Positions 10,536 to 36,678 of a stretch of DNA of 64,000 bases are shown here, in pieces. Location of the stretch: IMG/VR virus record IMGVR_UViG_3300028797_000118, positions 1 to 64,000 of that record. One strand, 5' to 3'. The notes below the pieces were generated by a model, which was given only the letters and a program-made list of their open reading frames with translations, was not told where the DNA came from and did not search any database. Position numbers and translations under genes: made by a program. Each line of letters starts with the position of its first letter. Positions within the stretch are counted from its first letter, which is position 1. The stretch comes from a virus (lineage: Duplodnaviria > Caudoviricetes).

Positions 10536-11864
10536 ATGGCTACTGCTAAAGAAATGTTAGATATAGCTCGTAAATATATAGGCGTTATTGAAAAACCAAA
10601 CAATAATGTTGTTTTTAATACAAGATATTATGGTAGGGAAGTTAATGGACCTCAGTATGCATGGTGTGCAGTTTTTATCTGGTGCTGCTTTAAAGAAGCT
10701 GATGCTTTGGATATTTTCTGTGGAGGACAAAAGACTGCTCTTTGCCAGTTTGCTTTGGATTACTATAGGAAAAATGGAAAGTTTTATAAAAAAGATCCTA
10801 AAGTTGGAGATCTTGTATTTTTTAAATTTGGTACGAATCAAAGAGAAACTGATCACATGGGTTTTGTAGAGAGTATAAATTCAGATGGTTCAGTTAATAC
10901 TATTGAGGGAAATACCTCTGATTCTAATCAGAATAATGGTGGTATGGTCATGAGGAAAAAGCGTTCTTCTAAGATAGTTGGATATGCAAGGCCCGATTAC
11001 GATGAAGAATTTAAAAGTCTTCCTTCCATAGATGAGACTTATCCACAAAAAGGAATAGATATGTCGAAATATCAGACTGGGGTAAATTATAAGGCACTCC
11101 GAGCTGAAGGAGTTAAGTTTGTTATCTTAAAGGTTATCCGTAAAGACCTTAAAAAAGATGATATGTTCGAGACTCATTATAAAGGCTGTATAGATGCTGG
11201 TATCCCAGTAAGAGCAGTTTATAACTACTCTTATGCTACAACTGTTGAAAAAGCAAAGATAGATGCAAAAAGAGTCATAGAAATCTTAAACGGAAGGGAT
11301 ATCCCTGTTGTTTTGGATGTTGAAGATGCATCTCAAAAGAATCTAAAGGAAAGACTTGTACAGATAATCAATGCTTATCAGAGTGTTATTGTAAGTGCAG
11401 GTCTTAAATTTTGTGTTTATACAGGACTTTCTTTTTATAAGAATTTTATTGAGCCATATAAAGATATGATAAATACGACTCAGTTTTGGATTGCAAGATA
11501 TCCGTCTACTAGTGAGATGAGCTTTAGTATATCTCCTCCCGCGAATAAAAAGCCCGATGTTAATGGGCTTATAGGTTGGCAGTATACGTCAAATGGAGTT
11601 ATTCCTAAAGCTTATAGTGGAAAGCTTGATTTCGATATTTTATATTCTTCTATCTTAAGACAGGAAAGAAAGACTGGAGTCATAACAGCAAATTCATTAA
11701 GGATACGGAGTACTCCAAGTACTTCTAACCTAAATAATGTTGTAGGATATCTTAAAAAAGGTGACAATGTCGTTATATATGCTACCGATGTTAAGACCGG
11801 ATGGTATCAGATAGATCTTGAAGGAAAGAAATGGATAAGTAATAAATACGTAAGATTAAATTAA
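10536..11864 (+). CDS. Endolysin: CHAP + GH25 muramidase + SH3b
   Basis: CHAP motifs AWCAVF, DHMGFVE, TIEGNT; GH25 motifs GIDMSKYQ, LDVED, WIARY, WQYTS; SH3b LRIRSTP...GWY. Confidence 0.9.
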   Translation: MATAKEMLDIARKYIGVIEKPNNNVVFNTRYYGREVNGPQYAWCAVFIWCCFKEADALDIFCGGQKTALCQFALDYYRKNGKFYKKDPKVGDLVFFKFGTNQRETDHMGFVESINSDGSVNTIEGNTSDSNQNNGGMVMRKKRSSKIVGYARPDYDEEFKSLPSIDETYPQKGIDMSKYQTGVNYKALRAEGVKFVILKVIRKDLKKDDMFETHYKGCIDAGIPVRAVYNYSYATTVEKAKIDAKRVIEILNGRDIPVVLDVEDASQKNLKERLVQIINAYQSVIVSAGLKFCVYTGLSFYKNFIEPYKDMINTTQFWIARYPSTSEMSFSISPPANKKPDVNGLIGWQYTSNGVIPKAYSGKLDFDILYSSILRQERKTGVITANSLRIRSTPSTSNLNNVVGYLKKGDNVVIYATDVKTGWYQIDLEGKKWISNKYVRLN

Positions 11865-14212: not shown

Positions 14213-16243
14213 ATGTCTTCAAATTTATATGATAAAACTACTCAGGAGCTCATACCATATGCAGGCAGTAATGAAGCAACAACGGCATCATTGGATAGTC
14301 TCTCCAATGTGCTTATCACTTCTCCTACAAATGGTCAGCTTCTTACTTTTGATGCAGAATCTCTTAAATGGAAAAATGCGGATAAAGAAAATGCAGCAAT
14401 TGAGATGAGTGACATTTCTGATGTAATAATTATGTCTGTTTCTCATGGCCAGATATTAAAATGGGAAGAAACGACTGGTAAATGGGTAAATAGTAATTTT
14501 CATGATATAACATCTCTTGGTGCTATTCCAAATGTGTATCTTGATGAGTTGTCGGATGGACAGTTTCTTATTTATGATACAACTTCTGGGAAATGGATAA
14601 ATACTACTTTGGAATATCAAAAGCCTCTTGTTGCTGATTATGGTATCTCAATAGATCAGAATAATAATAAGATTAAGGCAAAGACATTTGTAGGAACATT
14701 AAATGAATGGTATTCACTTTCTATGTCGGAACAGATGTCTTATGATTCAGTTGGAATAACTGACGATCAGAATACTGCATATGCAACAGAGATTGCTTAT
14801 GTTGATGAGCTTCCTCTTTCTGGAATCATGGATATAATCTATGGTCTTATGAATTTTGGAGAGAAACAGACTACAACTGCTGCTGATGGCTTTCTTGATA
14901 GTGTAAGTGCTTTTACAAAAACTACTGTTACAGGTGGATATAAGTATACTTCAAGTACGGCTGTTATAAGTACTGATGATCTGGCTTATTATTCTTTTGA
15001 ATCTATAACATATGATGGAACAAAATTTATTATTAATTGGGGCGGAGATTGGGAAGAAGAAGATCTTGCTCTTGGAGATACGTTCTATTATAAGACAATA
15101 GATAGGATCCAGTATTATGCTGGTCATCAGGAAACTCAGAGTTTTCATACATTTGAAAGTGATATTGAAGCATATAAAGTAACATACGACAATTCTTCTT
15201 CTGGATTGCTTTCATTGAATGTGCAGAGCGCTGTTGATGAACTTGCTGATGAAAAAGCTGATTCTGCTACTACGCTTTCTGGATATGGAATTACTGATGC
15301 TTATACAAAAGAAGAAATAGATAATGCGCTTTCTGAACTTGAAACAAATATAACATGGAAAGCTGCTGTAGCAACATATAGTGATATTGCTACTACTTAT
15401 CCTAATCCACAGCCTGGATGGACTGTAGTTGCTAATGATGTAAACATAGCATATAGATATACGACATCAGATGGTTGGACTGCTATTTCGGCTAATGCTA
15501 CTCCTGAAGCAACAGAACAGATAAATGGTCTTATGACTTCAACAATGGTAACTAAGCTTAATGGTATTGCTTCTGGTGCTGAAGTAAATCAGAATGCATT
15601 TAGTAATATTACTGTTGGATCTACTACTGTAGCTGCTGATAGTAAAACTGATACTCTTACTCTTGTTGCGGGATCTAATGTTACTTTAACTCCTGATGCA
15701 ACAAATGATAAAGTGACTATTGCAGCCACCAATACTACAACAGGAACCACATATGCAGCTGGATCTGCTCCTGCAAATACAACTTTTGGTACAAATGGAA
15801 GTATCAAAAATGCTTATGATTCATTAAATTCTTCTAAGCTTAAAAATGGTTATGCTAGTGCAACAACAAGTAAACAGGGAATTATTTTTGATAAATGTGC
15901 CGACAATAATTATTTCACATTTAGACCATATTTACCCAATAATCTTCTTCAGGTCACTAAAAATGATACAACGTCATTATTAAGTATATTCACTAATGGT
16001 ATTGTTGCAGCAGATGTGGGTTTGCGTTCTCCATTTTATTATTCAGCAGATCAAAGTATAAAAGTATCTTTTCAAGGAATACATGAAACTGTTGGTGGTG
16101 TAGAATATGATGGATATTCTATTAGATTACATCAGGTTAATAGTCTGTGGGGAATTGAATTTGCAGTATATTGGAACCTTGATGGAGCATATTGCAGAAA
16201 GAAAGTTAATAGCTCAACATGGGGAGCATGGACTAAGATTTAA
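14213..16243 (+). CDS. Tail fibre / receptor-binding protein
   Basis: Three repeats of L/I-S-D/N-V...GQ-L...W-N, TTLSGYGITDAYTK, KLNGIASGAEVN, C-terminal WGAWTKI knob-like end. Confidence 0.75.
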   Translation: MSSNLYDKTTQELIPYAGSNEATTASLDSLSNVLITSPTNGQLLTFDAESLKWKNADKENAAIEMSDISDVIIMSVSHGQILKWEETTGKWVNSNFHDITSLGAIPNVYLDELSDGQFLIYDTTSGKWINTTLEYQKPLVADYGISIDQNNNKIKAKTFVGTLNEWYSLSMSEQMSYDSVGITDDQNTAYATEIAYVDELPLSGIMDIIYGLMNFGEKQTTTAADGFLDSVSAFTKTTVTGGYKYTSSTAVISTDDLAYYSFESITYDGTKFIINWGGDWEEEDLALGDTFYYKTIDRIQYYAGHQETQSFHTFESDIEAYKVTYDNSSSGLLSLNVQSAVDELADEKADSATTLSGYGITDAYTKEEIDNALSELETNITWKAAVATYSDIATTYPNPQPGWTVVANDVNIAYRYTTSDGWTAISANATPEATEQINGLMTSTMVTKLNGIASGAEVNQNAFSNITVGSTTVAADSKTDTLTLVAGSNVTLTPDATNDKVTIAATNTTTGTTYAAGSAPANTTFGTNGSIKNAYDSLNSSKLKNGYASATTSKQGIIFDKCADNNYFTFRPYLPNNLLQVTKNDTTSLLSIFTNGIVAADVGLRSPFYYSADQSIKVSFQGIHETVGGVEYDGYSIRLHQVNSLWGIEFAVYWNLDGAYCRKKVNSSTWGAWTKI

Positions 16244-16271
16244 CGCTTAATTTATAACAATACATTTTATG

Positions 16272-16298
16272 AGCTGCTTATAATCAAGCAGTTTTTTT
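16272..16298 (+). terminator. Intrinsic terminator
   Basis: CTGCTT/AAGCAG hairpin followed by T7. Confidence 0.6.
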
Positions 16299-16322
16299 AT
16301 TATAGCGAAAGGAGGCATATAG

Positions 16323-18986
16323 ATGAGTCTTTCTTTTCGAGATTCAAATGGGATTCTTCATGAAATTGCAAGTAAATCTTTAACAGATTCTTTCTTGTCA
16401 AATAGTAGCGAGAATCCGGTAAAAAATAAGACGATTTATTATGCTTTGGAAAACAAAGTCGAGAAAGCAACTCAGGATTTAGTTCATTACTACTTGAAAA
16501 GTGAAACTTATTCAAAAGAAGAAGTTAATTCTCTTATCGGTTCAATCAGCTCACTTGATCTTGCAGTTGTAGCTACACTTCCAACGCAAGATATTTCAAC
16601 AACAACAATTTATTTGGTGGGTCCCGATTCAGAAACAGGGAAATATGATGAATATGTATATTTCAATAATTCATGGGTACAGATTGGAGATACCAGTATT
16701 GATCTTTCTGGATATGTTACTTCTTCTGAATTAACTGCTGCAATAGCTGATTTCTTAACTGAAACTGAGATTAGAAGTCTTGTTCAGACTTGTTATACAA
16801 AAATAGAAACTAATGCTCTTCTTGATGCAAAACAGGACGTTTTGACTTTTGATAATGCACCTATAGAAAATTCAACGAATCCTGTTAAATCCGGTGGTGT
16901 ATATACTGCTCTTTCTGGAAAACAAGACACTTTAACATATGATAATCTTCCAACTGAGAATTCTACTAATATGGTTAAATCTGGTGGAATTTATACAGCT
17001 ATTAATAGTCTTGGAGCAGATGACATAGCATATGATAATACAAATAGTGAACTTGTAGCAACCGATGTTCAGGATGCTGTTGATGAAATTGTAGAAGATG
17101 TTGAAAATTTAAATGAAAGCATAAATGGGAAAGTAGATTGGGAAAGTTTTAGTAAACTTGGCTCAATAAATGTTTGTCCAATATGTGTTGGTACTACTAC
17201 TCTTAATGGAGTGAAATTTACAGTAAATTCTGATGGAACAATAACAGCAACTGGAACAGCTACAGAATTTACGCCATTTGATATTGCTACCACGGATATG
17301 GGATATGTTATTGAAGATGGTGAGTATATCTTATCTGATGGTTTAGCAGAACATTCAAGTAACCAATATTCAACAGTTACAATTATTGATCAGAATGATG
17401 AAGTTCATTATGATTATGCAAATACAAAGGATTCTGGGAAGAATGTCTTTTCGATAGATAATAGTAATATAAAAAAGTTATATGTATCTATTTGTATTGG
17501 TAATGATTATACAGTATCTAATTTAGTTTTTAAACCTATGATTCGTCCTTCCTCAGTTACTCCTAATACATTTGTTCCATATTCTGAAACAAATAAACAG
17601 CTTACAAATGATAAAGTTGATTGGAAAACAGTAGGATATCTTGGTGCAAAAAATTTAAATTCTTATCCATATTATCAAGCAGATTCAGTTACTTCTAATG
17701 ATGTAACATTTACAGTTCAAAGTGATGGATCGGTTCTTGTTAATGGTACTGCTTCAGCAGATACTACATATATATTCCATACAAGAGCTTCTGAATTAAA
17801 CAGTTTGATTCTTCCTAATGGAAGATATATCATTTCAGGTTGCCCTTCAACTGGTTCATCATCAACATATCGTATAAATGCTAATAGAACTGTAAGTGGT
17901 TCAGGTGTAGTATATGGATCAGATATAGGTAAAGGTCTTGAAGTTACATTAAATGGAGATGATTATTCTAATGATAGAGTTAGATTGGGTTTATATATTT
18001 ATATTAATAATGGTACAACACTTGATAATATAGTATTTAAACCAATGATTCGATTAGCTTCTGACAAAGATGAAACATATCAACCTTATTCTATGACAAA
18101 TCAAGATATTACATCTTATGTTCAATCGATAAGTAATCCAAATTTACTTGATAATCCTTGGTTTACAATAAATCAACGTGGACAAACAACTTATACTGCT
18201 CCTATTGGATCATCTTATATGACAGTGGATAGATGGCATAAATTTGGGGGGACGGTTGTTGTTTCAAGTGATGGAGTTACATTATCTACAACGACTTCTG
18301 ATACAGATGGAAATTTTTATTCTGAGTATCTTTTATCAGAATATAGACATTTTTTAGGTTCTAAAGTAACTCTTTCAATTAAAATCAATAATAAAATTTA
18401 TAGTGCAACAGGAAGAGTTCCTAGTTCTACAGCGTCTTATTGGCAAACTCCAATTAGGTTTTATCCATTAAGTGGAATTGGATTATTAGTTGCATTACAT
18501 ATATCTCCAACTTCTAGTTCAAGATTTCAGGTAAGCATTCTAGTTCCTAAAGATGGTAATGAATATACTATTCAAGCAATTAAACTTGAAATGGGTGATA
18601 TCTCGACTTTAGGATTAGATACTTCTCCTAATTATGCTCAGGAATTAGATAAATGTAAACGTTATTTTGAAAAGAATTCATGGTTTTCATGGACTCCAGA
18701 AAAAGCCTTAGCTAATGGATATATATTTAGAGGCTTTTCTTATCGATATGATGTGCAGAAGAGAGCTCAACCTTCATTTACTTTTATATCTGGCAATGCT
18801 AATGGTCAATTAATTGATTTGACTACAAATACAACTCTTGCAAATGCAGATATTACCATTTCTAATAGTGGAGCATGGAATCCTAGAATGGTTCAATTAA
18901 AAGTTGAACATGCTTCAATTGTATCTGGCCATGAATACTTTTTTGCTGTTGGAGATAATGTATTTAGTATTTCAGCAGATATATAA
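16323..18986 (+). CDS. Tail fibre / receptor-binding protein with two tandem carbohydrate-binding-like domains
   Basis: Tandem KQD-LT-DN-P-ENSTN-VKSGG repeats; duplicated FTV-SDG...FKPMIR...PY domain; C-terminal NLLDNPWF...ELDKCKRYF domain. Confidence 0.75.
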   Translation: MSLSFRDSNGILHEIASKSLTDSFLSNSSENPVKNKTIYYALENKVEKATQDLVHYYLKSETYSKEEVNSLIGSISSLDLAVVATLPTQDISTTTIYLVGPDSETGKYDEYVYFNNSWVQIGDTSIDLSGYVTSSELTAAIADFLTETEIRSLVQTCYTKIETNALLDAKQDVLTFDNAPIENSTNPVKSGGVYTALSGKQDTLTYDNLPTENSTNMVKSGGIYTAINSLGADDIAYDNTNSELVATDVQDAVDEIVEDVENLNESINGKVDWESFSKLGSINVCPICVGTTTLNGVKFTVNSDGTITATGTATEFTPFDIATTDMGYVIEDGEYILSDGLAEHSSNQYSTVTIIDQNDEVHYDYANTKDSGKNVFSIDNSNIKKLYVSICIGNDYTVSNLVFKPMIRPSSVTPNTFVPYSETNKQLTNDKVDWKTVGYLGAKNLNSYPYYQADSVTSNDVTFTVQSDGSVLVNGTASADTTYIFHTRASELNSLILPNGRYIISGCPSTGSSSTYRINANRTVSGSGVVYGSDIGKGLEVTLNGDDYSNDRVRLGLYIYINNGTTLDNIVFKPMIRLASDKDETYQPYSMTNQDITSYVQSISNPNLLDNPWFTINQRGQTTYTAPIGSSYMTVDRWHKFGGTVVVSSDGVTLSTTTSDTDGNFYSEYLLSEYRHFLGSKVTLSIKINNKIYSATGRVPSSTASYWQTPIRFYPLSGIGLLVALHISPTSSSRFQVSILVPKDGNEYTIQAIKLEMGDISTLGLDTSPNYAQELDKCKRYFEKNSWFSWTPEKALANGYIFRGFSYRYDVQKRAQPSFTFISGNANGQLIDLTTNTTLANADITISNSGAWNPRMVQLKVEHASIVSGHEYFFAVGDNVFSISADI

Positions 18987-18999
18987 AATTACATTTAAA

Positions 19000-19022
19000 A
19001 GAGAGAGTGAAGTGCTCTCTCT
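19000..19022 (+). terminator. Hairpin/terminator before the four-gene module
   Basis: AGAGAGAG-7nt-CTCTCTCT. Confidence 0.5.
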
Positions 19023-19045
19023 TATTATTTTAAGGAGAATTTAAT

Positions 19046-19405
19046 ATGAATGGATTTTATAACAATCCTTATCAGAATCAGCTTTATCAGTCTTATATTC
19101 AGCCTTTGCAGCAGGCGCAGACAACAAACATTGTAAAGGTAAATGGAAAGCCTGGTGCTGATGCATATCAGCTTGGTCCAAATAGTAGTGCTCTTCTTCT
19201 TGATGAGACTGCTGCTATGGTTTGGCTCGTTCAGACTGATGGTGCAGGATATAAGACAGCGACTGCATATGACATTATTCCTCATAAAGAAGTTAAACAA
19301 GAGGATATGTTCAAAAAACTTGAAGATAGAATAAGTAAATTGGAGGATAAAGTAAATGCTAAATCCAATTCTTCAGATGTTAAATCAAGGAAATCCACAG
19401 AGTAA
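19046..19405 (+). CDS. Hypothetical protein (Q/Y-rich N-terminus, small globular core, coiled-coil tail)
   Basis: 119 aa, RBS AAGGAG; first gene of four-gene module. Confidence 0.7.
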   Translation: MNGFYNNPYQNQLYQSYIQPLQQAQTTNIVKVNGKPGADAYQLGPNSSALLLDETAAMVWLVQTDGAGYKTATAYDIIPHKEVKQEDMFKKLEDRISKLEDKVNAKSNSSDVKSRKSTE

Positions 19406-19622
19406 TATTATGTTGCAAGCTTTTGGAGCAATGATGAGAGGGGAGTCTCCTCAACAGTTTTTACAAAAACTTGCTCAGACAGATCCTAGATTACAAGGAC
19501 TTGATTTATCTAACCCTCAGAAAGCTGCTGAAGATTTATATCGTCAGAATGGGCAGGATATAAATGAAGCAAAAGAATCTGTAAAAGGAAAGATAAGTCA
19601 ATTCCTCAGTAATAAACAGTAA
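19356..19622 (+). CDS. Hypothetical Q/M/N-rich helical protein
   Basis: 88 aa, GGAGG upstream, overlaps previous gene. Confidence 0.7.
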   Translation: MLNPILQMLNQGNPQSNIMLQAFGAMMRGESPQQFLQKLAQTDPRLQGLDLSNPQKAAEDLYRQNGQDINEAKESVKGKISQFLSNKQ

Positions 19623-19660
19623 CTAATAATAAATACTTTTTTAAGAAAGGGGATTTTACT

Positions 19661-20194
19661 ATGAACGAATCTACTGGATTTATGTCAAATGATTGGTTAG
19701 GAGCATTTTTGATTATCGCTATTTTGTTTGGTGGCGGTTTTGGTGGATTTGGAGGACGTGGAGCTATGCCTAATGTTGCGACAGTTCAGGATGTAAATCA
19801 GGCAGTTGATAATCAGGCTACGCAGGCAAGTCTTCAGAATGTATTGCTTAGCAGTGCAAATAATAACTATGAGACTGCAAGACTTGTTGAGAATCAGACA
19901 ACTCAGCTTATGAATCAGAATAACACTAATCTTATAAATGCTATTCAGGGATTTAATAATGTGTCACAGCAAATCATGAATCAGACAAATGTTCTTGGTT
20001 CAAAACTTGATCAGCTCGGCTTCCAGATGGATCAGTGCTGCTGCTCTATTAAGACTCTTATTAAGGACAATCAGATTGCGGATCTTACAAATCAGCTTAA
20101 CAACGCAAATAATGCAGCAATTAACTCTGCACAGAGTCAGTATCTCCTCTCTCAGTTAGGCAAGTGGACTCCTTATACAGCAACAACAACTTGA
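19661..20194 (+). CDS. Membrane-anchored N/Q-rich coiled-coil protein with CCC motif
   Basis: WLGAFLIIAILF + GGGFGGFGG, long N/Q heptads, QCCC. Confidence 0.75.
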   Translation: MNESTGFMSNDWLGAFLIIAILFGGGFGGFGGRGAMPNVATVQDVNQAVDNQATQASLQNVLLSSANNNYETARLVENQTTQLMNQNNTNLINAIQGFNNVSQQIMNQTNVLGSKLDQLGFQMDQCCCSIKTLIKDNQIADLTNQLNNANNAAINSAQSQYLLSQLGKWTPYTATTT

Positions 20195-20204
20195 GGTGAT
20201 ATAA

Positions 20205-20513
20205 ATGCGGATAATCAAATCATTAGTTGAAAAAATCGATGATGAGCTTATGGATGCTGAGAAGTATATAAATTGTGCTTATGAAACTAAGATGGATTAT
20301 CCAGATGTTTCATTGGTATATTTTAAACTTTCTCAGGAAGAGATGAAGCATATGCAAATGCTTCATACTCAGGTTGTAAAAATAATCGAGGAACATAAGA
20401 AAACAAATGAAGTTCCATTAGTCATGAAAGAATTGTATAACTATCTACATGAACGTCAGATAGAATGGGCTGCGAAGATAGAACTTAAACAAAAGAATTA
20501 TAACAATCAATAA
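20205..20513 (+). CDS. Ferritin-like helical protein
   Basis: DELMDAEKY...EEMKH (E...ExxH half di-iron motif). Confidence 0.55.
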   Translation: MRIIKSLVEKIDDELMDAEKYINCAYETKMDYPDVSLVYFKLSQEEMKHMQMLHTQVVKIIEEHKKTNEVPLVMKELYNYLHERQIEWAAKIELKQKNYNNQ

Positions 20514-20527
20514 GGAGGGATTAAAGA

Positions 20528-22117
20528 ATGGCTAATGTTATTTTTAATAAAGTCATTGCCCAAGGCGGTCAGACTGCAAAGGAAAGATATGATGCTATGT
20601 CCCACAGCGAGGGTACATTCTATCTTGTAGGTTCTGAGCTTTATCTTGGGGATGTTTTACTTTCTGCTAATATCGCAGAAGAAGTTGAGTATGATAATAC
20701 ATTGACTTCAATGACAGCAGATAATGTTCAAGATGCTATAGACGAATTGCATGATCTTGATGCTGATAAAAAAGTATATATGGAAGATGCTTCTTCAGGT
20801 CAGAGTGAGTATGCTAAAGTTTATAATTTCTATCAGGGATCAGAAGGCAGTTCACTTTCTCCTGTTGTTGGAGAACTTATCGGAACTATCAATATTCCTT
20901 TGGATAAAGTTGTTCAAGCTGGTTCTGTTGTAGAAGTTGTATTCGTTGAAGGAATAGGTGGAGATCCTGATACTCTTCATGAAGGAGATGCTTTAGGTCC
21001 GGATGTTACTACTCTCATAAAAGGTTCTGCAACTCCTACAGAAGCTGATGCCGGTAAATATATCAAACTTGAACTTCAGAATGTAACTGATCCGTTATAT
21101 ATTGCTGTTAAAGATCTTGTAGATGTTTATACAGGTGGATCAAATACTGAAGCAACAGTTACTATTGATGGTAATAATGTTATCACAGTTACGATTGGAA
21201 AAATCGATGCAACAAAGGTAATCTATCAGGAAGCAGCTGATGCTACATATGAGCAGATTGTTGCTCCCGCAACTTTTGATGAAAATGAGACATATTATAC
21301 ATATGATAGTTCAACAGATACTTATACAGAAGATGATACTGTAACAGTTTCTAATTTTGATGATAAGGTTGCAGCTGGATTATATATCGTTGATACACCT
21401 GCTGTTTCTGAGATAAATGTAAAAGATCAGATTGATACTGTTGATGGTAAGGTAGATAATCTTGCAGATTATGTAGGTACATTTACTCCTCAGCTTGGTG
21501 TTGATACAGTTATTGATTATATTGATACAAAGACAGGAGAAGGTGTTGGTGCTCTTAATTCTGAAGCCGGTATTGCTTCTGTTTCTGCTAATGTTGTAAC
21601 CATTAAAGCAGGTATTGTTGAGACTGAAGGTCTTATAGATAATGTTCCAACCTCTGTTTCAGGTACTCAGCATACTGGTTACTATGATGATTCTAAATTC
21701 TGGGAGGAACCACAGGTTGAAGGTTATCTAAATTCAAGTGATGGCAGATTCTATGAAGAAGATACATATACTACAGAGATTCCTTCGGTAACTGGAAAAA
21801 TATATAAAGATATTCCAACAGAAGTAACATATGAATGGGATGATACTCTTGCAACTCCTGCATATGTAGAAGCTACAAGAACTGAGATTACACCTAATAC
21901 TACTGATTATTATACAGATACTCCAAGTAATAAGAATTATAAATGGACAGGAAAAGCTTATGTCCTTGTGTCTGCTGATATTGTTCTTGAAGAAGTTGCT
22001 GTAACTGGTGCTGCTGCTGATGTTTCTTATAACAATACAACAAGTCAGATGACTGCTGATGATGTTCAGGAAGCAATAGATGAAATTGCCGGAAGACTTA
22101 CTTGGAACGAAGTTTGA
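20528..22117 (+). CDS. Acidic tail fibre/decoration protein
   Basis: YDN...MTADNVQDAIDEL module near both ends, D/E/T-rich. Confidence 0.6.
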   Translation: MANVIFNKVIAQGGQTAKERYDAMSHSEGTFYLVGSELYLGDVLLSANIAEEVEYDNTLTSMTADNVQDAIDELHDLDADKKVYMEDASSGQSEYAKVYNFYQGSEGSSLSPVVGELIGTINIPLDKVVQAGSVVEVVFVEGIGGDPDTLHEGDALGPDVTTLIKGSATPTEADAGKYIKLELQNVTDPLYIAVKDLVDVYTGGSNTEATVTIDGNNVITVTIGKIDATKVIYQEAADATYEQIVAPATFDENETYYTYDSSTDTYTEDDTVTVSNFDDKVAAGLYIVDTPAVSEINVKDQIDTVDGKVDNLADYVGTFTPQLGVDTVIDYIDTKTGEGVGALNSEAGIASVSANVVTIKAGIVETEGLIDNVPTSVSGTQHTGYYDDSKFWEEPQVEGYLNSSDGRFYEEDTYTTEIPSVTGKIYKDIPTEVTYEWDDTLATPAYVEATRTEITPNTTDYYTDTPSNKNYKWTGKAYVLVSADIVLEEVAVTGAAADVSYNNTTSQMTADDVQEAIDEIAGRLTWNEV

Positions 22118-22124
22118 TTGTAAT

Positions 22125-22159
22125 GGAGGGGATAGACTTCTATCCTCTCCTGTTTTTTT
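22125..22159 (+). terminator. Intrinsic terminator
   Basis: GGAGGGGATAG-ACTT-CTATCCTCTCC then T tract. Confidence 0.7.
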
Positions 22160-22177
22160 AGATGGGAGGGAAAATAT

Positions 22178-23461
22178 ATGGCAAAGCCTATATTTACAAA
22201 AGGTGGAACTGCTGGTATAGATGTCGAACCCCTCGTTGATGGACAGATTCTTTTTGATCAAGACCGTACTAGGATACTTCTTGATACTACAATTGATGGG
22301 ACACTTACTCGTCTTATAATGACAGAAAAAGATACTTTTAATGGAACTAGAGCGGAGTGGGCTGCTCTTACTGATGAACAGAAAGAGATTTTTACTTATG
22401 TTCATCTTACTGACGATTATGAATTTAAGAGTTCCGCATTTATCGGTGCTACAGAAAATTCTGATGGAGCTGCTGGTCTTGTTCCTGAACCAAAGATTGC
22501 TGACAGACATAAAATTTTATGTGGAAATGGACAATGGATTGATCACATTATTGATGATAGTCTTGATGTTTTGAGTGAAAATCCTGTTCAGAATAGAACT
22601 TTGACTAATGCCCTTGATGGGAAATTGAATTCTTCTTTAAAGGGTGTCGCTAATGGTCTTGCTGAACTTGATAACACTGGAAAGATTCCGGCATCTCAGC
22701 TTCCAGGTTCACTTAATCTTTTGGAGAAATATCCCACTGTTAATGATTTTCCTGCGTTGGGTGACGATTATACGATGTATGTTGCAGAAGATACAAACTT
22801 TGTATATCGTTGGACTGGTTCCGATTATGTGCAGATTGATGCATCGATTCAGATAGGAGAAACCTCTCAGTCTGCATTTCGTGGAGATCATGGTAAGATT
22901 GCTTATGATCATGCATATACTAATAAAGGAATAGCTCTTTCAAGTGGTTTATATAAAATTACAACTAATTCTGAAGGACATATCACCGCTGGAACAGCTG
23001 TTACAAAAACTGATATTACAGATCTTGGTATACCTGGATCTGCAACTGAATGTAGTGTTACCGATGTATCAGGAGCTATTTCAAGTTTAGATGATTTTGT
23101 TAGTAAATCAGCAAAAGGTAAGCTTGTTTCAAACTTTATAATTACTGATACAGATAACGTTTTTGGTCTTGGTTCTGGTGCTACTGTCAGAGGAAGTATT
23201 CAGTATTCAAATGCTTATGATGGAACAAGTGACGTAGATGGAAATGGATTTATCTATACTTCTAGTTCGGTTAGTCCTGTATTTATTAAGATTACGGGAA
23301 CTAGTTCTTTTATATTGTCAAAACAGAGTATCACGACTCCGACTAAAGAAGATATTGGTCTTGGCAATGTAGAAAATTTAGACTATAAAAAGATGTTTAC
23401 ATATTCTGCTTCTGAACCTTCAGGTGTTTGGAATGGATGTGTTTGGGTGGCATCTACTTGA
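22178..23461 (+). CDS. Tail fibre protein
   Basis: GAAGLVPEP, KGVANGLAELDNTGKIPASQLP, AFRGDHGKIAYDH, TKEDIGLGNVEN fibre modules. Confidence 0.75.
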   Translation: MAKPIFTKGGTAGIDVEPLVDGQILFDQDRTRILLDTTIDGTLTRLIMTEKDTFNGTRAEWAALTDEQKEIFTYVHLTDDYEFKSSAFIGATENSDGAAGLVPEPKIADRHKILCGNGQWIDHIIDDSLDVLSENPVQNRTLTNALDGKLNSSLKGVANGLAELDNTGKIPASQLPGSLNLLEKYPTVNDFPALGDDYTMYVAEDTNFVYRWTGSDYVQIDASIQIGETSQSAFRGDHGKIAYDHAYTNKGIALSSGLYKITTNSEGHITAGTAVTKTDITDLGIPGSATECSVTDVSGAISSLDDFVSKSAKGKLVSNFIITDTDNVFGLGSGATVRGSIQYSNAYDGTSDVDGNGFIYTSSSVSPVFIKITGTSSFILSKQSITTPTKEDIGLGNVENLDYKKMFTYSASEPSGVWNGCVWVAST

Positions 23462-23480
23462 ATAAAAGGAGGAGTAAGTT

Positions 23481-23810
23481 ATGGCAGATTATACGCATGA
23501 GTATAGTAATTTCCCCACTACTATATATACTCTCCATAATTTTTTAGATCTCAAGGATGCTCCTTTGAATGTTGCAAGTGTAGTTTCTGATATTAAAAAT
23601 CTTATTCTTCAGGGAAGTTATAATCAGGCTGCACTAAAACTTGAAGAAAATAAAAATATTCTCTCTCAGTATCTTATAGATGCAACTTTTATTAATACTT
23701 TGGATGAGGAACTTCGAAATCTTGAGATTTATGCTAAGACAAAAAAACAGGCTTTATATTATACTACTGAGGAACCGGAAGGCGTGTCCGGTGATATTTG
23801 GATAGGTTAG
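23481..23810 (+). CDS. Tail-associated protein (paralog of next gene)
   Basis: FP...D...Y..A...N...N.L..E..N/A.E.YA...P...WI pattern shared with 23815-24147. Confidence 0.55.
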   Translation: MADYTHEYSNFPTTIYTLHNFLDLKDAPLNVASVVSDIKNLILQGSYNQAALKLEENKNILSQYLIDATFINTLDEELRNLEIYAKTKKQALYYTTEEPEGVSGDIWIG

Positions 23811-23814
23811 CTTT

Positions 23815-24147
23815 ATGCATAATACAAGTACTGTTTTCCCTGAGTCTTTTGACAATAGATTTTTCTTTAATGATGTTCGTCTTCGACACGCCGATATAAT
23901 GAGAGGATATAGGGATTATTTATTGAATAAAGATTATGTGGGTGCATCTCAATATCTATACAATAATGTTGAGATAGCAAATCAAGACATGGATTATAAT
24001 GGTGCGTATTTATGGAACACTTTGGAAAATCGTGTATCTGCCATTGAAAATTATGCTATCTCTATGGAAGAGACAAACGTTCGTCCATATTGTTCAAATG
24101 TACCACCTACGCAAAAAATGGAGCATATGTCATGGATTTGCGATTGA
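23815..24147 (+). CDS. Tail-associated protein (paralog of previous gene)
   Basis: Same pattern as 23481-23810; last gene before terminator. Confidence 0.55.
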   Translation: MHNTSTVFPESFDNRFFFNDVRLRHADIMRGYRDYLLNKDYVGASQYLYNNVEIANQDMDYNGAYLWNTLENRVSAIENYAISMEETNVRPYCSNVPPTQKMEHMSWICD

Positions 24148-24151
24148 TTTT

Positions 24152-24186
24152 TAGGGAATTATGGTTTGGCCATAGTTCCCTTTTTT
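24152..24186 (+). terminator. Intrinsic terminator ending the tail operon
   Basis: AGGGAATTATGG-loop-CCATAGTTCCCT followed by T run. Confidence 0.75.
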
Positions 24187-24309
24187 CGCATTTAAGATGC
24201 AGATATTATCTGAGCTGTGACGATATGTTAAAATTTGCCGTCTATTTTCGTTTTTTATTATCTTTTTGAATATTTGTCCATAATCAATATAAAACGTCTA
24301 AAATGTGCC

Positions 24310-24900
24310 AAATTTTAATAAATAAAATATATATCACTTTTATGATATTGCTAATTACATATCAAATATACAACATCATAATATTGATATATATAATTAA
24401 CTATCTCAATATATATATTATAAATTCGTTATTGTAATATTTATTTATAAATACTCATATTCTTATTTTTATATTGTAATATTAATATTTTTATTTTTAT
24501 TTTATATATTACATTTTAATATTTTGATATTTTTATATAAATTTTATATATTTGATATTGTAATATTAATTTCCAAATACTAATTTATAGATATTGAGTT
24601 TATAATATCGGTATAATTAAATATATATTTTAAATTTACTATTGGTATATATATTTAATTATATCGATATTGACATATATAATTTTATATAGTAGTATTT
24701 AAAAATCTATTTTGTAATTTTGATTATACGTTATTGATATTTATATTTTGATTTTATTATTTTAGTTTATTGTTATTGATTTATTGATTGTGTTTTTGTG
24801 ATATTACTATCTTCAAACTACTATCCATATATTAATTTTTATATTTTACATTTGTAATTATGATATTTGCATTTAAATATCATGATATATATTTTATTAT
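24310..24900. promoter_or_regulatory. Very AT-rich non-coding region with degenerate short repeats; putative centromere (parS) and parA promoter
   Basis: Recurrent TATTGTAATATT (three copies), many TTGATAT, local 8-bp phasing; directly upstream of parA as in type Ib par loci. Confidence 0.5.
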
Positions 24901-24920
24901 TCAAAAAAGGGGAATGAAAA

Positions 24921-25718
24921 ATGAGTATTAACATTGCTATCGCAAATCAAAAAGGAGGAGTAGGGAAAACAACGACTACTATTATCTTAGCTGATGCATT
25001 AAAGCACATTGGCTATAAGGTTCTTGTTATCGATCTTGATCCTCAGTGTAACACGACTGACACATATGGAGCAAAGCTTGAAGATGTATATACGATCTAT
25101 GATGTTCTTGATGGTGAATGCAAAACTGAAGAAGCTATACAAAAATTAGTATTAGGAGATATTATTCCTGGAGACAAACTACTTGCAGACAATCTTGATC
25201 ATTTTAATGCAAAGATGTCAAGAGAACTATTATTAAAAAAGAGACTAAAAGAAGTTGATAAGAAATATGATTTTGTTATAATCGATACCCCTCCTACGCT
25301 TGGTTTATATATGGTCAATGCGCTTGCTGCTTCAAATGGATGTGTAATTCCACTAAAGGCTGAGAGATATTCAGTAAGTGGTCTTGGAGAACTTTTTTCG
25401 ACAATAAACAATATAAGAGAAGCCGGAGTTAATGAAAATCTTAAGGTATATGGAACTCTTATAACCAATTTCGACACAAGAAACGACCTTGATAGAAGAC
25501 TTAAGATGGAACTTCCTGAGACTGCATCTCAGTACAATTTTAGGAATTTTAATTCTTATATAAGGATTTGTCAGGACATCAAGAAATCACAAAATCTTAA
25601 TTTTGAAGAGGGTGAGATAATAAATCGTTCATTGTTTGATAATTATCCTGGAAGTAATGCTGCTGAAGATTATGTAAAATTCACAAAAGAATTATTGGAG
25701 GTAATAAAGAATGGCTAA
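24921..25718 (+). CDS. parA: ParA/Soj partition ATPase
   Basis: NQKGGVGKTTT deviant Walker A, DLDPQ, IIDTPP Walker B; no N-terminal HTH (type Ib). Confidence 0.95.
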   Translation: MSINIAIANQKGGVGKTTTTIILADALKHIGYKVLVIDLDPQCNTTDTYGAKLEDVYTIYDVLDGECKTEEAIQKLVLGDIIPGDKLLADNLDHFNAKMSRELLLKKRLKEVDKKYDFVIIDTPPTLGLYMVNALAASNGCVIPLKAERYSVSGLGELFSTINNIREAGVNENLKVYGTLITNFDTRNDLDRRLKMELPETASQYNFRNFNSYIRICQDIKKSQNLNFEEGEIINRSLFDNYPGSNAAEDYVKFTKELLEVIKNG

Positions 25719-27150: not shown

Positions 27151-28404
27151 GTGATTATGGGGCAAAAAAAAACGCAAGATAGTACCACTGATATTCTTTC
27201 AAGTAAAAAATATACAAAGTCTAATGCTTTGGTCAATTCAAAGGGGAAAGCTGGATTATTAGCAGAAAAATTATTCGCAGTAGGAATTCAGAGAGCAGTT
27301 GAAGATGAAAAGACCGGCATTCTTACAACAACAATTCGAGGAATAGAACTAAAGAAGATTTTCCAAACTAATCGTGGATCGTTTTACGCTGATGTTAGTG
27401 CGTTGGTGGATCCGCCAACAAATGATTCTCCATCATTACTTGATTGGAGGATAATTTATAAAGATGACGAATCGCAGAGTATTGAAGCAATAAATGTTAT
27501 TACTGATTGTTCGTTCAAAAAAGGTGTTTTCGAAATAAGATTTAATAATAAGATCACACCACAGGTAAGAAGATTGCAAGCAAATTATACTATTTTTTCA
27601 CTTGCAGATACGATGCCTTTAAAAAGCATTTATTCTTTTAAATTATATGAGATATTAAAATCTGAATATGACAGACAAGATTATGCGGCTAAAAAAAGAG
27701 AATTATGGAATCCGAATGCAACCTATATAACGGAAATGCATATTGTTGATCTGAAACTAAGAGTAGGTATCATTGATAGTTCATGGAGTAATGAAATAGC
27801 TGAAGAGCTTAGAAAGCCTGATCCAGATTATAATCTGATTGAAAAAATCACGGATGCATTATTAAAAAGCGAAGGAGCTATTGATAAAAATAAAAAGACA
27901 TATAAGAGTTATAAGAGAATAGATAATTTTAAAAAAAATGTTCTTGATAGAGCAAAAGAAGAATTAGAAGAAAAAACATCTATAAAGTTTGATTATGAAA
28001 ATTTAACAGGAGGAGCAGGGGGAAAAGTATATGGAATAAGATTTTTTATTTCGAAAAATATAAAAGAATCTGATACTATTGAAATAGTTGAGAATCCAAA
28101 AGTTTTTATGTCGAAAGAAGAAAAATTTGAGATTCTGGAAACTATTGCTGATATGATTGGAAATTCATTTTCATATAGGGATGTCAAAGTTATTTCTGAA
28201 AGAGCAGGTTACAATATAGAGAAAGTAAAAAATGCGTATGAGATTATGTTAAGCAATAAGACAACAATAAGTGACCCAACTGCTTGGATGATTAGTGCTA
28301 TTGAAAAAAATTATCAGAGAGGGATAGGAACAAAGTTAGTAAAAACTTATGCAAATCCCAATGAAGATATTTCTGAATTAGAAGCATTACTTTTAGATAA
28401 CTAA
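27151..28404 (+). CDS. Plasmid replication initiator, Rep_3 family
   Basis: KSNALV, LKSIYSFKLYEILKS, FKKNVLDRAKEEL, GKVYGIRF motifs; adjacent iterons. Confidence 0.9.
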   Translation: MIMGQKKTQDSTTDILSSKKYTKSNALVNSKGKAGLLAEKLFAVGIQRAVEDEKTGILTTTIRGIELKKIFQTNRGSFYADVSALVDPPTNDSPSLLDWRIIYKDDESQSIEAINVITDCSFKKGVFEIRFNNKITPQVRRLQANYTIFSLADTMPLKSIYSFKLYEILKSEYDRQDYAAKKRELWNPNATYITEMHIVDLKLRVGIIDSSWSNEIAEELRKPDPDYNLIEKITDALLKSEGAIDKNKKTYKSYKRIDNFKKNVLDRAKEELEEKTSIKFDYENLTGGAGGKVYGIRFFISKNIKESDTIEIVENPKVFMSKEEKFEILETIADMIGNSFSYRDVKVISERAGYNIEKVKNAYEIMLSNKTTISDPTAWMISAIEKNYQRGIGTKLVKTYANPNEDISELEALLLDN

Positions 28405-33367: not shown

Positions 33368-34462
33368 ATGATAAAAGGCGTAAAATTTAGGATCTATCCC
33401 AACAAAGAACAACAACAATTAATAGACCAGACATTCGGATGTTGTAGACTTGTATATAATAAAGCTCTTGCATTAAGAAAAGAAGCATATGAAGAAAGAC
33501 AAGAAAAGGTGGGCTACATGCAAACTTCTGCTATGCTCACAAAACTCAAAAAGCAAGATGAGTTCGTCTTCCTTAAAGATGTAGATTCTATCGCTCTGCA
33601 GCAGTCTCTCAGAGACTTAGACCGTGGATTCAAAAACTTTTTTGAGAAACGTGCAAGGCATCCTCAGTTCAAGAGTAAACATAACAACCATCAGTCCTAT
33701 AGAACCATTAACCAAGGTGATAACATCCGTATTGTTGGCAAATATATCAAACTTCCTAAGCTTGGATATGTAAAAATCAGGCAATCTATGGAAGTTGGGC
33801 ATATCAATAACGTCACCATTGAGAAGACTCCTACAGGTAAATATTTCGTAGTCCTTAACGTGGATTTTGAGCCTAAACTGCGTCCAAACAACGGATGTAT
33901 GGTCGGTATAGATGTTGGTATTAAAGAGTTCTATTCTGACAGTAACGGTAATGTCGTAAACAATCCTAAATACCTCGAAATGTCACAGCGTAAACTCATT
34001 CGTGAACAGCGCAGGTTGTCACGTAAACAGAAAGACTCTAATAACCGCAATAAACAACGTATTCGTGTGGCTAAAGTTCATGAGAAGATAACCAATCAGC
34101 GTAATGATTTCCTTCAAAAGCAGTCAACTATGCTTGTTAGCGAAAACCAAACTATCTGCATAGAAGACCTTAATGTTAAGGGAATGATACATAATCATAA
34201 GCTTGCCAAATCTATAGCAAGTGCATCATGGAGTAAGTTCTTTACAATGCTTGAATATAAAGCTGCATGGTACGGGAGTGAGGTAATCAAAGTGCCCACT
34301 ATGTACCCAAGCAGTCAGACTTGCAGTTGTTGCGGCTATAAAAATCCACTTGTAAAGAATCTTGCTGTACGCACATGGGAATGTCCTCAGTGTCATGCAA
34401 AGCATGACAGAGACACTAACGCAAGTATAAACATACTAAACAAAGGGCTATTCATAGCCTGA
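33368..34462 (+). CDS. tnpB: TnpB RNA-guided endonuclease (IS200/IS605 family)
   Basis: KFRIYP...FGCCRLVYN HTH; RuvC GIDVG / IEDL / DRDTNA; CSCC..CPQC zinc finger. Confidence 0.95.
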   Translation: MIKGVKFRIYPNKEQQQLIDQTFGCCRLVYNKALALRKEAYEERQEKVGYMQTSAMLTKLKKQDEFVFLKDVDSIALQQSLRDLDRGFKNFFEKRARHPQFKSKHNNHQSYRTINQGDNIRIVGKYIKLPKLGYVKIRQSMEVGHINNVTIEKTPTGKYFVVLNVDFEPKLRPNNGCMVGIDVGIKEFYSDSNGNVVNNPKYLEMSQRKLIREQRRLSRKQKDSNNRNKQRIRVAKVHEKITNQRNDFLQKQSTMLVSENQTICIEDLNVKGMIHNHKLAKSIASASWSKFFTMLEYKAAWYGSEVIKVPTMYPSSQTCSCCGYKNPLVKNLAVRTWECPQCHAKHDRDTNASINILNKGLFIA

Positions 34463-36285: not shown

Positions 36286-36678
36286 ATGGAATACAAATCA
36301 AATCACAATGTAGTCTATTCCTGCAAATACCATGTGGTATGGTGTCCTAAGTATCGACGTTCCGTTTTAATAAACGGTGTTGATGTTCGCTTAAAGGAGT
36401 TGATTAAAAAAATCTGCGACCAACTTAACGTCGAAATCATCGAAATGGAAATCATGCCAGACCATGTACATTTGCTTATGGGAGTAGACCCTCAATTCGG
36501 AGTACATAAAGCCGTAAAACAAATTAAAGGATATTCTTCTAAAGTATTGAGAGATGAGTTTCCCTGGCTTAAATCAAGGCTTCCGAGCCTCTGGACAAAC
36601 AGCTACTTTGTTAGCACAGTTGGTGGTGCTCCACTTGCTGTCATTAAACAGTATATTGAGAATCAGAAAAATGTGTAG
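36286..36678 (+). CDS. tnpA: IS200 Y1 (HUH) transposase
   Basis: YHVVWCPKYRR, DHVH, KGYSS, LWTNSYF, YIENQ. Confidence 0.97.
   Translation: MEYKSNHNVVYSCKYHVVWCPKYRRSVLINGVDVRLKELIKKICDQLNVEIIEMEIMPDHVHLLMGVDPQFGVHKAVKQIKGYSSKVLRDEFPWLKSRLPSLWTNSYFVSTVGGAPLAVIKQYIENQKNV

Follow-up and report, generated by a model that had tools for sequence, protein, structure and literature searches.

A horizontally exchanged phage cassette built around a predicted membrane rod protein

Introduction

Several small phage proteins combine an N-terminal transmembrane (TM) helix with a coiled coil, among them the i-spanin Rz, PBSX XhlA, BhlA/UviB and phi29 p16.7; several of these are encoded beside lysis genes, and Rz contains functionally important cysteines. 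Morons and superinfection-exclusion genes, such as lambda lom and bor, T5 llp, T1 cor, HK97 gp15 and lactococcal Sie2009, occur singly and often bring a promoter and a terminator of their own. We describe here a four-gene cassette (g119, g88, g177 and g102) of a rumen jumbo phage, at positions 19046 to 20513 of IMG/VR virus record IMGVR_UViG_3300028797_000118; its best-conserved gene, g177, encodes a predicted membrane-anchored rod protein. The window that we analysed is the first 64 kb of this linear 124,447-base record, the estimated completeness of which is 68%. Open-access papers yielded neither a description of the cassette nor a proteome of a phage that carries it.

Comparison with these systems reveals partial likenesses only. 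g177 shares with the first group a single TM helix near its N-terminus followed by a helical rod, and the cassette lies beside lysis genes in some phages, but no sequence or profile similarity to Rz, XhlA, BhlA/UviB or p16.7 was found. In contrast to spanins, the cassette has no lipoprotein partner (the translations of an embedded 56-amino-acid (aa) open reading frame (ORF) at 19989-20159, of g88 and of g102 contain no Cys-containing lipobox), most hosts are monoderm, and the g177 rod is N/Q-rich and nearly uncharged; none of the four proteins named above has anything equivalent to its Cys triplet (CCC), its Gly/Phe linker or its two dedicated partner genes. Nor does g177 look like a holin, since it has one TM helix, only ~9% of the remainder is charged, and no holin Pfam family matched it. 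Like morons, the cassette is an exchangeable accessory set found between fibre genes, beside lysis genes or beside an integrase; unlike them, it comprises three to six genes and, in the window, has no promoter-like site and is followed by a terminator-like site only after the next fibre-like gene. Likeness to the exosporium protein BclA and the Cys-rich basal layer is confined to a BclA_C-matching gene in other lineages, to Cys-rich partners and to ferritin-like proteins in the clusters, whereas the BclA_C matches fall below the Pfam cut-off, none occurs in this genome, no collagen-like region is present and the hosts include non-sporulating genera. In PHROG, g177 belongs to phrog_16490 and g119 to phrog_21718, both labelled 'unknown function'; these entries are single-protein families with no stated linkage, which we add here. 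We class the cassette as a phage accessory membrane module, with a small chance that it is a new membrane-remodelling machine.

Results

Four genes exchanged as one module

The cassette sits between fibre-like genes of 887 and 529 aa, and its features are as follows.

18999..19023, + strand: terminator-like hairpin after the 887-aa fibre gene, forming the 5' module edge (11-bp stem, 3-nt loop, T-rich tail)
19046..19405, + strand: g119, 119 aa, family phrog_21718
19356..19622, + strand: g88, 88 aa, small Met/Gln-rich protein
19661..20194, + strand: g177, 177 aa, predicted single-pass membrane rod protein, phrog_16490; best-conserved gene of the module
19697..19747, + strand: hydrophobic helix of g177 (residues 13-29), running into the GGGFGGFGG linker; hydropathy maximum 1.94
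20036..20044, + strand: CCC motif of g177 (residues 126-128)
20205..20513, + strand: g102, 102 aa, putative three-helix ferritin-fold remnant
20528..22117, + strand: fib529, 529-aa fibre-like gene, starting 14 nt after g102 and outside the exchanged module

All four ORFs are genuine genes, and together they make up a single phage cassette that is exchanged horizontally; the numbers of homologues of g177, g119 and g102 are much higher than chance would give. An earlier note, made from the letters of this DNA alone, had proposed four ORFs behind a hairpin, and we recovered exactly this layout, with all four genes co-oriented on the + strand behind the hairpin at 18999-19023. A Shine-Dalgarno-like site precedes each of g119, g88, g177 and g102. 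The start of g88 overlaps the end of g119, their reading frames sharing 50 nt, which suggests translational coupling. ORFs on the minus strand over the cassette have no conserved counterparts, and all tblastn matches were plus-strand.

Scanning viral contigs with g177 returned 15 loci, 14 of which carry the four genes colinearly: 13 were recognized by tblastn, and L013 has a fourth gene whose product is a g102 relative (33% identical by blastp); the remaining locus, L014, ends at a contig edge. Apart from L002, a 126-kb sister jumbo phage, these loci lie on ~35-45 kb contigs or short fragments, and at least one ~45 kb contig is complete with terminal repeats. DNA similarity to the ~45 kb phages (blastn) covers ~19123-20507 at 68-70% identity, with short fibre patches at ~17000-18200 and one patch at 22052-22089 outside the module; in L013 it is restricted to 19861-20167, inside the module. 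The flanks of the cassette in the ~45 kb phages are unrelated to those in the window and instead contain GH25, ELLD or glucosaminidase endolysins, small holin-like proteins and, in L013, an integrase. Similarity to L002 begins at 19017 and continues through the downstream fibres at 86% DNA identity, while its upstream fibre has been replaced, with the exception of a patch at 18075-18175. g177 is 69-98% identical between phages whose neighbouring fibres are ~30% identical.

The patch at 18075-18175, ~100 nt within the 887-aa fibre gene, recurs at 74-86% identity in the fibre genes of several 45-kb phages that are otherwise unrelated, and may represent a shared fibre motif or a recombination point. 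Two further gene families accompany the cassette outside the window. Small proteins with matches to Sigma-70 region 4 only (E 2e-8 to 2e-4) are encoded directly upstream of it in several lineages (L015 4942-5325, L004 5039-5329, L012 5105-5320, L101 122-313) and may be dedicated regulators; no Sigma-70 region 4 gene lies ahead of the cassette in the window. Downstream of the cassette in 45-kb phages is a family of ~350-aa N/Q/A-rich proteins of flagellin-like composition, 50-98% identical among loci (L015 6885-7970, L006 6031-7089, L004 8071-9114, L012 8350-9426), with no Pfam or PHROG match and no relative in the window's genome.

In bacterial assemblies, two contigs from metagenome-assembled genomes (MAGs), labelled Firmicutes and Clostridiales, carry the cassette in order, g88 passing the hidden Markov model (HMM) in only one of them. 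A scan of bacterial contigs with g177 alignment A3 confirmed 0 loci, and a second scan yielded three MAG loci, one of which (L128, Pelosinus) was unconfirmed by HMMs. One protein match is named as coming from Butyrivibrio sp. AE2032.

A three-gene core beyond the rumen lineage

Megablast of 16000-24200 and tblastn of g177 against INPHARED both returned no match; relatives in named phages surfaced only with more distant family members as queries. These distant queries recovered rod-protein relatives in 42 GenBank phage records, from six Clostridium perfringens phages, Dulem (lemur) and rodent-gut viruses, human faecal and crAss-like phages and a Bacteroides uniformis phage. The statement in the earlier note that such cassettes recur in gut Firmicutes phages with no assigned function is correct.

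Iterated HMMs were run over the ORFs of 118 pooled sources, comprising the window, the GenBank loci and the IMG/VR loci recovered by four queries. A rod-family ORF was present in 116 of the 118, falling into 10 clusters at 50% identity, around which the neighbouring genes were distributed as follows.

g119-family gene directly upstream of the rod gene: 84 of 109 evaluable loci by HMM; 6 of 10 clusters, including L019 and L033 via phrog_21718
Small Met/Gln-rich ORF directly upstream of the rod gene: 96 of 109 evaluable loci; 7 of 10 clusters
g102 relative downstream of the rod gene: 23 of 27 evaluable loci in the window's own cluster, 0 of 72 elsewhere; 1 of 10 clusters

The conserved core is thus a triad: a g119-type gene (phrog_21718), an overlapping g88-type gene and a g177-type gene (phrog_16490). 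Overlap of the upstream gene with its small Met/Gln-rich neighbour recurs in six other lineages examined (L004, L017, L019, L103, L042 and L045). The proposal that the four genes form a functional unit holds for their colinearity in the viral loci, but beyond the rumen lineage only three of the families travel together. We consider it very probable that the genes constitute one conserved functional cassette.

Individual lineages vary around this core. In the C. perfringens phages, the rod gene is preceded by two overlapping genes, one for a 146-aa phrog_21718 protein whose head is rich in Y, N and Q and one for a 77-aa protein that is 35% Met+Gln, and is followed by a gene for a Cys-rich beta protein; the direct hhalign comparison of the g119 alignment with the 146-aa protein is weak (E 0.015), and the link rests on shared phrog_21718 membership. 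Dulem virus 39 has the same gene order, adjoining an integrase, with an upstream gene that matches phrog_21718, and Dulem viruses 35 and 36 encode the triad in the same order. In 19 loci (L103-L121), the upstream 129-aa protein is g119-like by eye and was missed by both the HMM and phrog_21718. crAss-like and Bacteroides phages have the rod gene with no detectable g119 or g88 relatives; in crAss-like cr116_1 (L020 4599-5495) and Bacteroides phage C3_41T2LP (L021 4626-5543) it is annotated 'spike protein/glycoprotein' and 'outer capsid protein/viral fiber', respectively. Both products belong to the family defined by a TM helix, a Gly-rich linker, CCC and a Cys-containing tail, and these labels probably reflect coiled-coil similarity only. 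Across lineages, rod proteins are 24-44% identical to one reference member.

The rod gene is followed in many other lineages by a gene for a ~130-145 aa beta-rich protein. BclA_C (PF18573) matched four of the five members tested (E 1.3e-6 to 1.7e-3, 18.7-28.7 bits against a cut-off of 38), and it was not found anywhere in the 124-kb record at E<=0.1. Such weak matches are common, since 4 of 14 control genomes gave sub-cut-off BclA_C matches at E<=0.1, and the Dulem BclA_C-like protein had 0 matches to PDB sequences.

A predicted single-pass membrane rod

g177 reads, in order, as a short acidic N-terminal tail, a hydrophobic helix, a Gly/Phe-rich linker, an N/Q-rich helical region, CCC and a C-terminal motif, bearing out the earlier description of its helix, GGGFGGFGG segment, N/Q coiled coil and Cys triplet. 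It has one hydrophobic segment, which runs directly into the linker, and was alone among 12 small ORFs tested in the window's tail and fibre region in containing a hydrophobic 19-mer with a Kyte-Doolittle (KD) value of at least 1.6. The rod contains 15% N and 11% Q, shows moderate heptad periodicity (4-6 of 8 a/d positions hydrophobic) and is very poor in charge (K 2, R 1, D 4, E 2%).

Across 27 close sequences (mean column identity 81%), W12, A15-A20 and F23-G25 are invariant, as are the GG(G)-x-G linker and the block CCCSIKTLIKDNQIA, and the C-terminal motif is conserved. CCC is present in all 27 close sequences and in 31 of 35 diverse members, and is near-invariant in wide alignment A5. The N-terminal tails of the 35 diverse members together contain 113 D/E against 26 K/R, and the 25 residues after the helix contain 38 K/R against 65 D/E. 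In many distant members the protein is extended by an N-terminal 'LSxxDIxAL' segment and by C-terminal tails rich in Cys, Gly and Pro.

g177 matches phrog_16490 at 3.9e-10, and its membership, together with that of g119 in phrog_21718, was re-found in the genome search at 4.3e-11; 18 of 22 diverse relatives also matched phrog_16490, and none of the 22 had a convincing Pfam match. The family is abundant but narrow, because 3741 homologues clustered at 90% identity passed E<=0.001 among 3814 candidates, whereas an exhaustive profile search of 1.84 billion proteins returned only 181 representatives at 50% identity (E<=0.001). ESM Atlas clusters for the family are 83-94% viral, and the Atlas offered only unnamed viral clusters for g177 and g119. 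PDB sequence searches with single g119, g177 and g102 gave nothing meaningful. Complex prediction for g177 with g88 scored 0.19 and 0.20 against a mark of 0.32, with controls not run, and speaks neither for nor against binding.

Two leader peptides were considered on sequence alone and rejected for this family. A type IV pilin-like leader would account for the G|F junction in g177, but the leader is acidic and Glu5 is absent. Distant members have a double-glycine bacteriocin-like N-terminus (LSxxDIxAL...GG), but no transporter or peptidase gene accompanies them and the protein is too large.

Two overlapping genes upstream of the rod gene

g119 matches phrog_21718 at 8.6e-10. Its N-terminus, rich in Q, N and Y, leads into a small beta domain (~30-77), after which come a zipper-like helix (85-106) and a basic tail. 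Its earlier description as Q/Y-rich applies to the first ~27 residues, which are Q/N/Y-rich, and not beyond them (8% Q and 6% Y overall). An AlphaFold2 (AF2) model has a mean predicted local distance difference test (pLDDT) score of 77, rising to 95-96 over residues 31-80, with the flanking Q-rich helix at low confidence. No PDB fold match emerged (Foldseek best E 0.32; VIA Z<=3.9, in a list dominated by the C-terminal helix). Of the candidate homologues, 665 of 677 passed E<=0.001, and BFVD contained 22 matches at the same threshold, all of them uncharacterised or auto-labelled gut-virome phage proteins.

The g88 alignment (A4) has a mean column identity of 74%. Its sole family match was the XPC-binding/STI1-like PF09280, over 15 residues (E 0.0015, 18.5 bits); this falls below the cut-off of 26.4. 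Profiles of g119 and g88 searched against PDB gave coiled-coil noise only. None of g119, g88 and g102 contains a hydrophobic 19-mer of KD>=1.6 or, as read from the translations, an N-terminal signal-like segment, and all three are probably cytoplasmic.

A putative ferritin remnant

Ferritins, bacterioferritins and rubrerythrins are the closest described proteins to g102, which shares with them a Glu, a Tyr seven residues later and an ExxH motif. Residues E14, Y21, E46, H49, H54 and H82 are invariant across 57 aligned sequences, and all 54 candidate homologues passed E<=0.001. Searched against PDB, the g102 profile aligned with helices A and B of the ferritin BfrB (residues 16-65, E 2.2e-4), and 16 of its 20 PDB matches were ferritins, bacterioferritins or rubrerythrins. 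Other comparisons were less specific: no Pfam ferritin or rubrerythrin family matched at E<=1, and fold searches with the AF2 model (three long helices, pLDDT 93) found generic three-helix bundles only, led by syntaxin Habc (Z 11.8). The NCBIfam model of MbfA, a protein whose N-terminal domain is a partial ferritin-like form, matched weakly (E 2.9e-4, 20.4 bits against a cut-off of 450), and encapsulated ferritin is another short ferritin-like form to which g102 may be likened.

The first-half, site-A residues of the ferroxidase site, namely the helix-A Glu, the Tyr and the helix-B ExxH, are thus present in g102, whereas the second-half set of a helix-C Glu and a helix-D Glu/ExxH is not: g102 has three predicted helices in ~100 aa, against the four-helix bundle of ~160 aa, helix 4 and the helix-D ligand set are missing, and in helix 3 only H82 is invariant. 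Because the profile finds ferritins and the aligned Glu, Tyr and ExxH are invariant, we read g102 as a predicted ferritin-fold remnant that keeps at most half of a di-iron site. The label 'ferritin-like' accordingly survives in a remote and truncated sense, and not as the four-helix fold.

A second protein with ferritin similarity is encoded in Clostridium phage vB_CpeS-17DYC, four genes after the rod gene: a 175-aa protein (phrog_17879, L017 7419-7946) with a weak ferritin match (E 0.009; 21 of 22 PDB matches were ferritins). An hhalign comparison of the g102 alignment with this protein detected no relation (probability 2%).

Genome positions and transcription

The cassette occupies non-homologous positions in different phages. 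In the window and L002 it lies between fibre genes, and in L010 and L012 it is flanked by fibre- or tail-like genes. In a 56-locus human-gut group, two members of which (L042 and L045) were checked, it has an r1t-type holin on one side and an endolysin-type gene on the other, the latter with GH25/CW_7/LysM in L042 and with SH3_5 only in L045. The ~45 kb phages carry it beside endolysin and holin-like genes or next to an integrase, and a second rumen group carries it after a connector-like gene, either just before a Phage_holin_4_1 gene or just before TerL; in L032, the Phage_holin_4_1 gene follows g102. In C. perfringens phages it belongs to the early region, with an anti-repressor gene on one side and Gam, recombinase, ThyX and SSB genes on the other. 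The rod gene of Bacteroides phage C3_41T2LP lies beside RecT, resolvase and replication genes, and in crAss cr116_1 a holin and an L,D-carboxypeptidase are encoded ~2 kb upstream of it.

In the window's own genome, two holin Pfam models found no match. In a 442-aa lysin (10536-11864), an N-terminal endolysin-type domain (phrog_21357) is joined to a GH25 muramidase domain; none of the five small ORFs after the lysin gene has a hydrophobic segment, and hence no holin adjoins it. Outside the window, an overlapping gene pair at 112072-112901 encodes a 131-aa protein with two hydrophobic segments and a 145-aa protein with one such segment and a charged helix, and by hydropathy alone looks like a holin and its partner, the best holin-like pair in the genome. 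The cassette lies ~92 kb from this pair and 7 kb from the genome's only GH25 gene.

At the upstream hairpin, a 71-nt stretch folds at -17 kcal/mol (z -3.7), and 0 of 200 shuffles folded as well. Between this hairpin and g119 a scan for sigma-70-type consensus sites found no promoter-like site. No terminator-like site was found between 19452 and 21260, the next strong hairpin being at 22125-22150, and fib529 is therefore probably on the same transcript as the cassette. The earlier claim that the module is self-contained thus has to be divided: its boundaries are real by DNA similarity, but no terminator-like site follows g102 and fib529 begins 14 nt on. fib529 itself is common to the window and L002 (89% aa identity), and in 45-kb phages only short patches match it.

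Terminator-like hairpins also occur elsewhere near fibre genes, at 16271-16294, 22125-22150 and 24153-24181. Three of the four fibre-like genes are followed by one, and the fourth hairpin follows small genes behind the 427-aa gene; terminator-like sites numbered 9 against 2.7 expected. These hairpins could serve graded expression or transcript stabilisation along the cluster. No Rfam family matched within 16000-25000.

Discussion

We tentatively favour a reading in which the cassette encodes a moron-like accessory complex that acts on the host cytoplasmic membrane and is not part of the virion, a possibility that we hold well short of conviction. With low confidence, we likewise take the cassette to be neither a fibre nor a ferritin cage. 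A host-directed complex is favoured because the module hops between genome positions, phage sizes and hosts of two phyla, and because the partner proteins lack export signals. In such a complex, g177 would sit in the membrane with its N-terminus out and its rod in the cytoplasm, an orientation suggested by the acidic N-terminal tail. Oligomers would form along the rod and be stapled by the Cys triplet, through metal or disulfides; g119 and g88 would be the soluble partners of g177, the former possibly acting as a zipper-dimer adaptor and the latter attending to the hydrophobic Gly/Phe segment, possibly as its holdase or adaptor; and g102 might bind metal that serves Cys/His chemistry. This arrangement lies close to a 'membrane-inserting assembly with dedicated chaperones', an alternative offered by the earlier note, which fits the predicted anatomy. 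The favoured output would be altered membrane admission, that is, a block of incoming phage DNA or of re-adsorption (superinfection exclusion), and the second option would be tuning of membrane breakdown at lysis. Exclusion genes and morons of well-studied phages occupy positions like those of the cassette, and exclusion is ranked first because of this positional match. Since the rod family is common to Firmicutes phages and crAss-like/Bacteroides phages, a target common to all of these hosts fits better than adaptation to a single virion architecture.

A number of observations weigh against this preference. No cassette member has a homologue of known function, and among defence families searched with PADLOC the four proteins produced only a coiled-coil-type DndD match (E 0.0099), which does not place them in a defence system. 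Known exclusion proteins are, to our knowledge, encoded by single genes and not by three to six. In its scarcity of charge the rod resembles fibre or extracellular filament proteins more closely than it does cytoplasmic coiled coils, and the Cys/Gly/Pro-rich tails of many relatives suggest an extracytoplasmic or virion setting that clashes with an N-out/C-in topology. The window cassette, with no promoter-like site of its own, runs straight into a fibre gene, so that it is probably expressed with the late genes and not as an independent moron. Fibre or knob genes often come next after the cassette, and carriers include strictly lytic phages.

Some of these features sustain the view that the cassette is a virion-associated fibre, spike or ejection set, with g177 as an oligomeric rod carried by the particle; we consider it unlikely, and it stays a serious rival because of the uncharged rod, the Cys-rich tails, the following fibre or knob genes and the lack of an own promoter. 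At infection, the hydrophobic, Gly/Phe-rich segment near the N-terminus of g177 would enter the target membrane in the manner of a fusion peptide, with the heptad rod, the Cys cluster and a second helix behind it; g88 would act as a pre-assembly solubiliser, and a variable knob or fibre gene would come next in line. The place of the cassette within a fibre cluster 14 nt from fib529, the fibre- or tail-like flanks in L010 and L012, the sub-threshold BclA_C signal in the beta-rich next gene of other lineages and the depositors' 'spike' and 'fiber' labels all point this way. However, the cassette also moves into early, recombination and lysogeny regions and is carried by jumbo, ~45 kb and crAss-like phages alike, an unusual spread for a component obliged to fit a single virion, and a strongly hydrophobic helix of 17-20 residues is atypical of a soluble fibre. 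The part of the crAss001 virion atlas consulted (PMC10172136) contains no such protein, although crAss001 is absent from the tblastn matches, so this point has little weight. A tail-fibre chaperone is an unlikely identity for the cassette, which also occurs far from any fibre gene.

Distinctly less likely is a lysis accessory, in which g177 would be holin-like or XhlA/antiholin-like and the small proteins would regulate the timing or completeness of envelope breakdown. An N-terminal TM helix with a coiled coil is common among lysis proteins, and the neighbours fit in the two human-gut members checked, in the 45-kb phages, in L032 and in crAss cr116_1; but the phages concerned already have canonical holins, the cassette here is remote from both the holin-like pair and the GH25 gene, g177 lacks the charged C-terminus typical of holins, and no holin Pfam family matched it or its 22 relatives. 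Adjacency is in any case weak evidence, because lysis modules end late operons, where accessory genes accumulate anyway. There is an outside chance that the g177 family is a membrane-remodelling rod built like a class I fusion protein or a spanin, from a hydrophobic Gly/Phe-rich peptide, a heptad rod, a Cys cluster and a second helix, which a Met-rich holdase (g88) and a prion-like zipper adaptor (g119) deliver or hold and which is joined in some lineages by a TNF/BclA-like knob or a mini-ferritin. If true, crAss-like phages and phages of monoderm gut bacteria would possess a hitherto unrecognised machine for breaching, fusing or sealing the membranes of their hosts.

phi29 p16.7 is a membrane-anchored coiled-coil scaffold, and by analogy the cassette might be a membrane organiser of phage replication or packaging, the g119 zipper and basic tail forming an arm that binds nucleic acid or a partner. 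Its company in C. perfringens phages, in C3_41T2LP and directly upstream of TerL would suit that role, which we nevertheless judge very unlikely, given that searches with the four proteins brought up no DNA-binding fold or family, that the gene set in the window is a late, fibre-cluster one and that the charge-poor rod is unlike known scaffolds of this type. Still slighter is the prospect of a shell or fibril, cross-linked by disulfides or metal, whose chemistry resembles that of the spore coat or exosporium, the first proposal of the earlier note. The Cys triplet and the Cys-rich tails of relatives, the ferritin-like g102 and the weakly ferritin-like 175-aa protein of the C. perfringens phage cluster are compatible with it, as is the lack of signal peptides in the accessory proteins, for coat proteins assemble in the cytoplasm and likewise lack them. 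Its sole link to such structures, however, is the sub-threshold BclA_C matches in the neighbouring gene of other lineages, a kind of match that controls also produce and that this genome lacks, and further points weigh against the proposal: collagen-like (GXX) repeats are absent from the four proteins, no coat or exosporium family of Pfam or NCBIfam was matched, the rod protein also occurs in Bacteroides and crAss-like phages, and Butyrivibrio, to which one named host belongs, is not known to sporulate. That unrelated small genes are merely hitch-hiking together with no functional unit is scarcely credible. The restriction of g102 to one lineage and a control search in which phrog_21718 matched in a Lactococcus lactis genome (phrog_16490 matched in none), so that the g119 family also occurs apart from phrog_16490, would agree with it, but gene order, gene overlap and module boundaries are kept across lineages whose rod proteins are so divergent.

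Whichever of these holds, linking phrog_21718, the small Met/Gln-rich protein and phrog_16490 turns three orphan families into one testable system. The rod protein spans phages of cattle rumen and of human, lemur and rodent gut, C. perfringens phages and crAss-like phages, in the last of which it is mislabelled 'spike' or 'fiber', and the cassette can serve as an annotation marker for an exchangeable accessory module. If it is true that the cassette guards or opens the host membrane, this would bear on competition among gut phages and on host range; if otherwise, it would represent a new kind of phage membrane assembly, combining a Cys-triplet rod with a minimal ferritin-derived metal site.

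Other features of the window

The wider gene order of the window is as follows.

136-5163: tape-measure gene, left half of the window
After the tape-measure gene, left half of the window: tail proteins
10536-11864: 442-aa lysin, GH25-type, among the tail genes
Fibre-like genes of 676, 887, 529 and 427 aa, with the cassette between the second and third
After the fibre-like genes: ParA, Rep3 and IS200/IS605-type transposase genes and an opposite-strand replication block
33368-34462, 36286-36678 and 36853-37989: TnpB-like/TnpA-like genes

Just after the fibre cluster lie genes for a ParA-type partition ATPase (24921-25718; AAA_31, 2.4e-52) and a Rep3-type initiator (27151-28404; 6e-15), from which this large phage may be kept as a plasmid-like element (phage-plasmid). 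The phage genome also harbours two TnpB-like genes (phrog_506, 3.6e-139 and 3.6e-52) and an IS200-type TnpA-like gene (phrog_2577, 2.1e-54).

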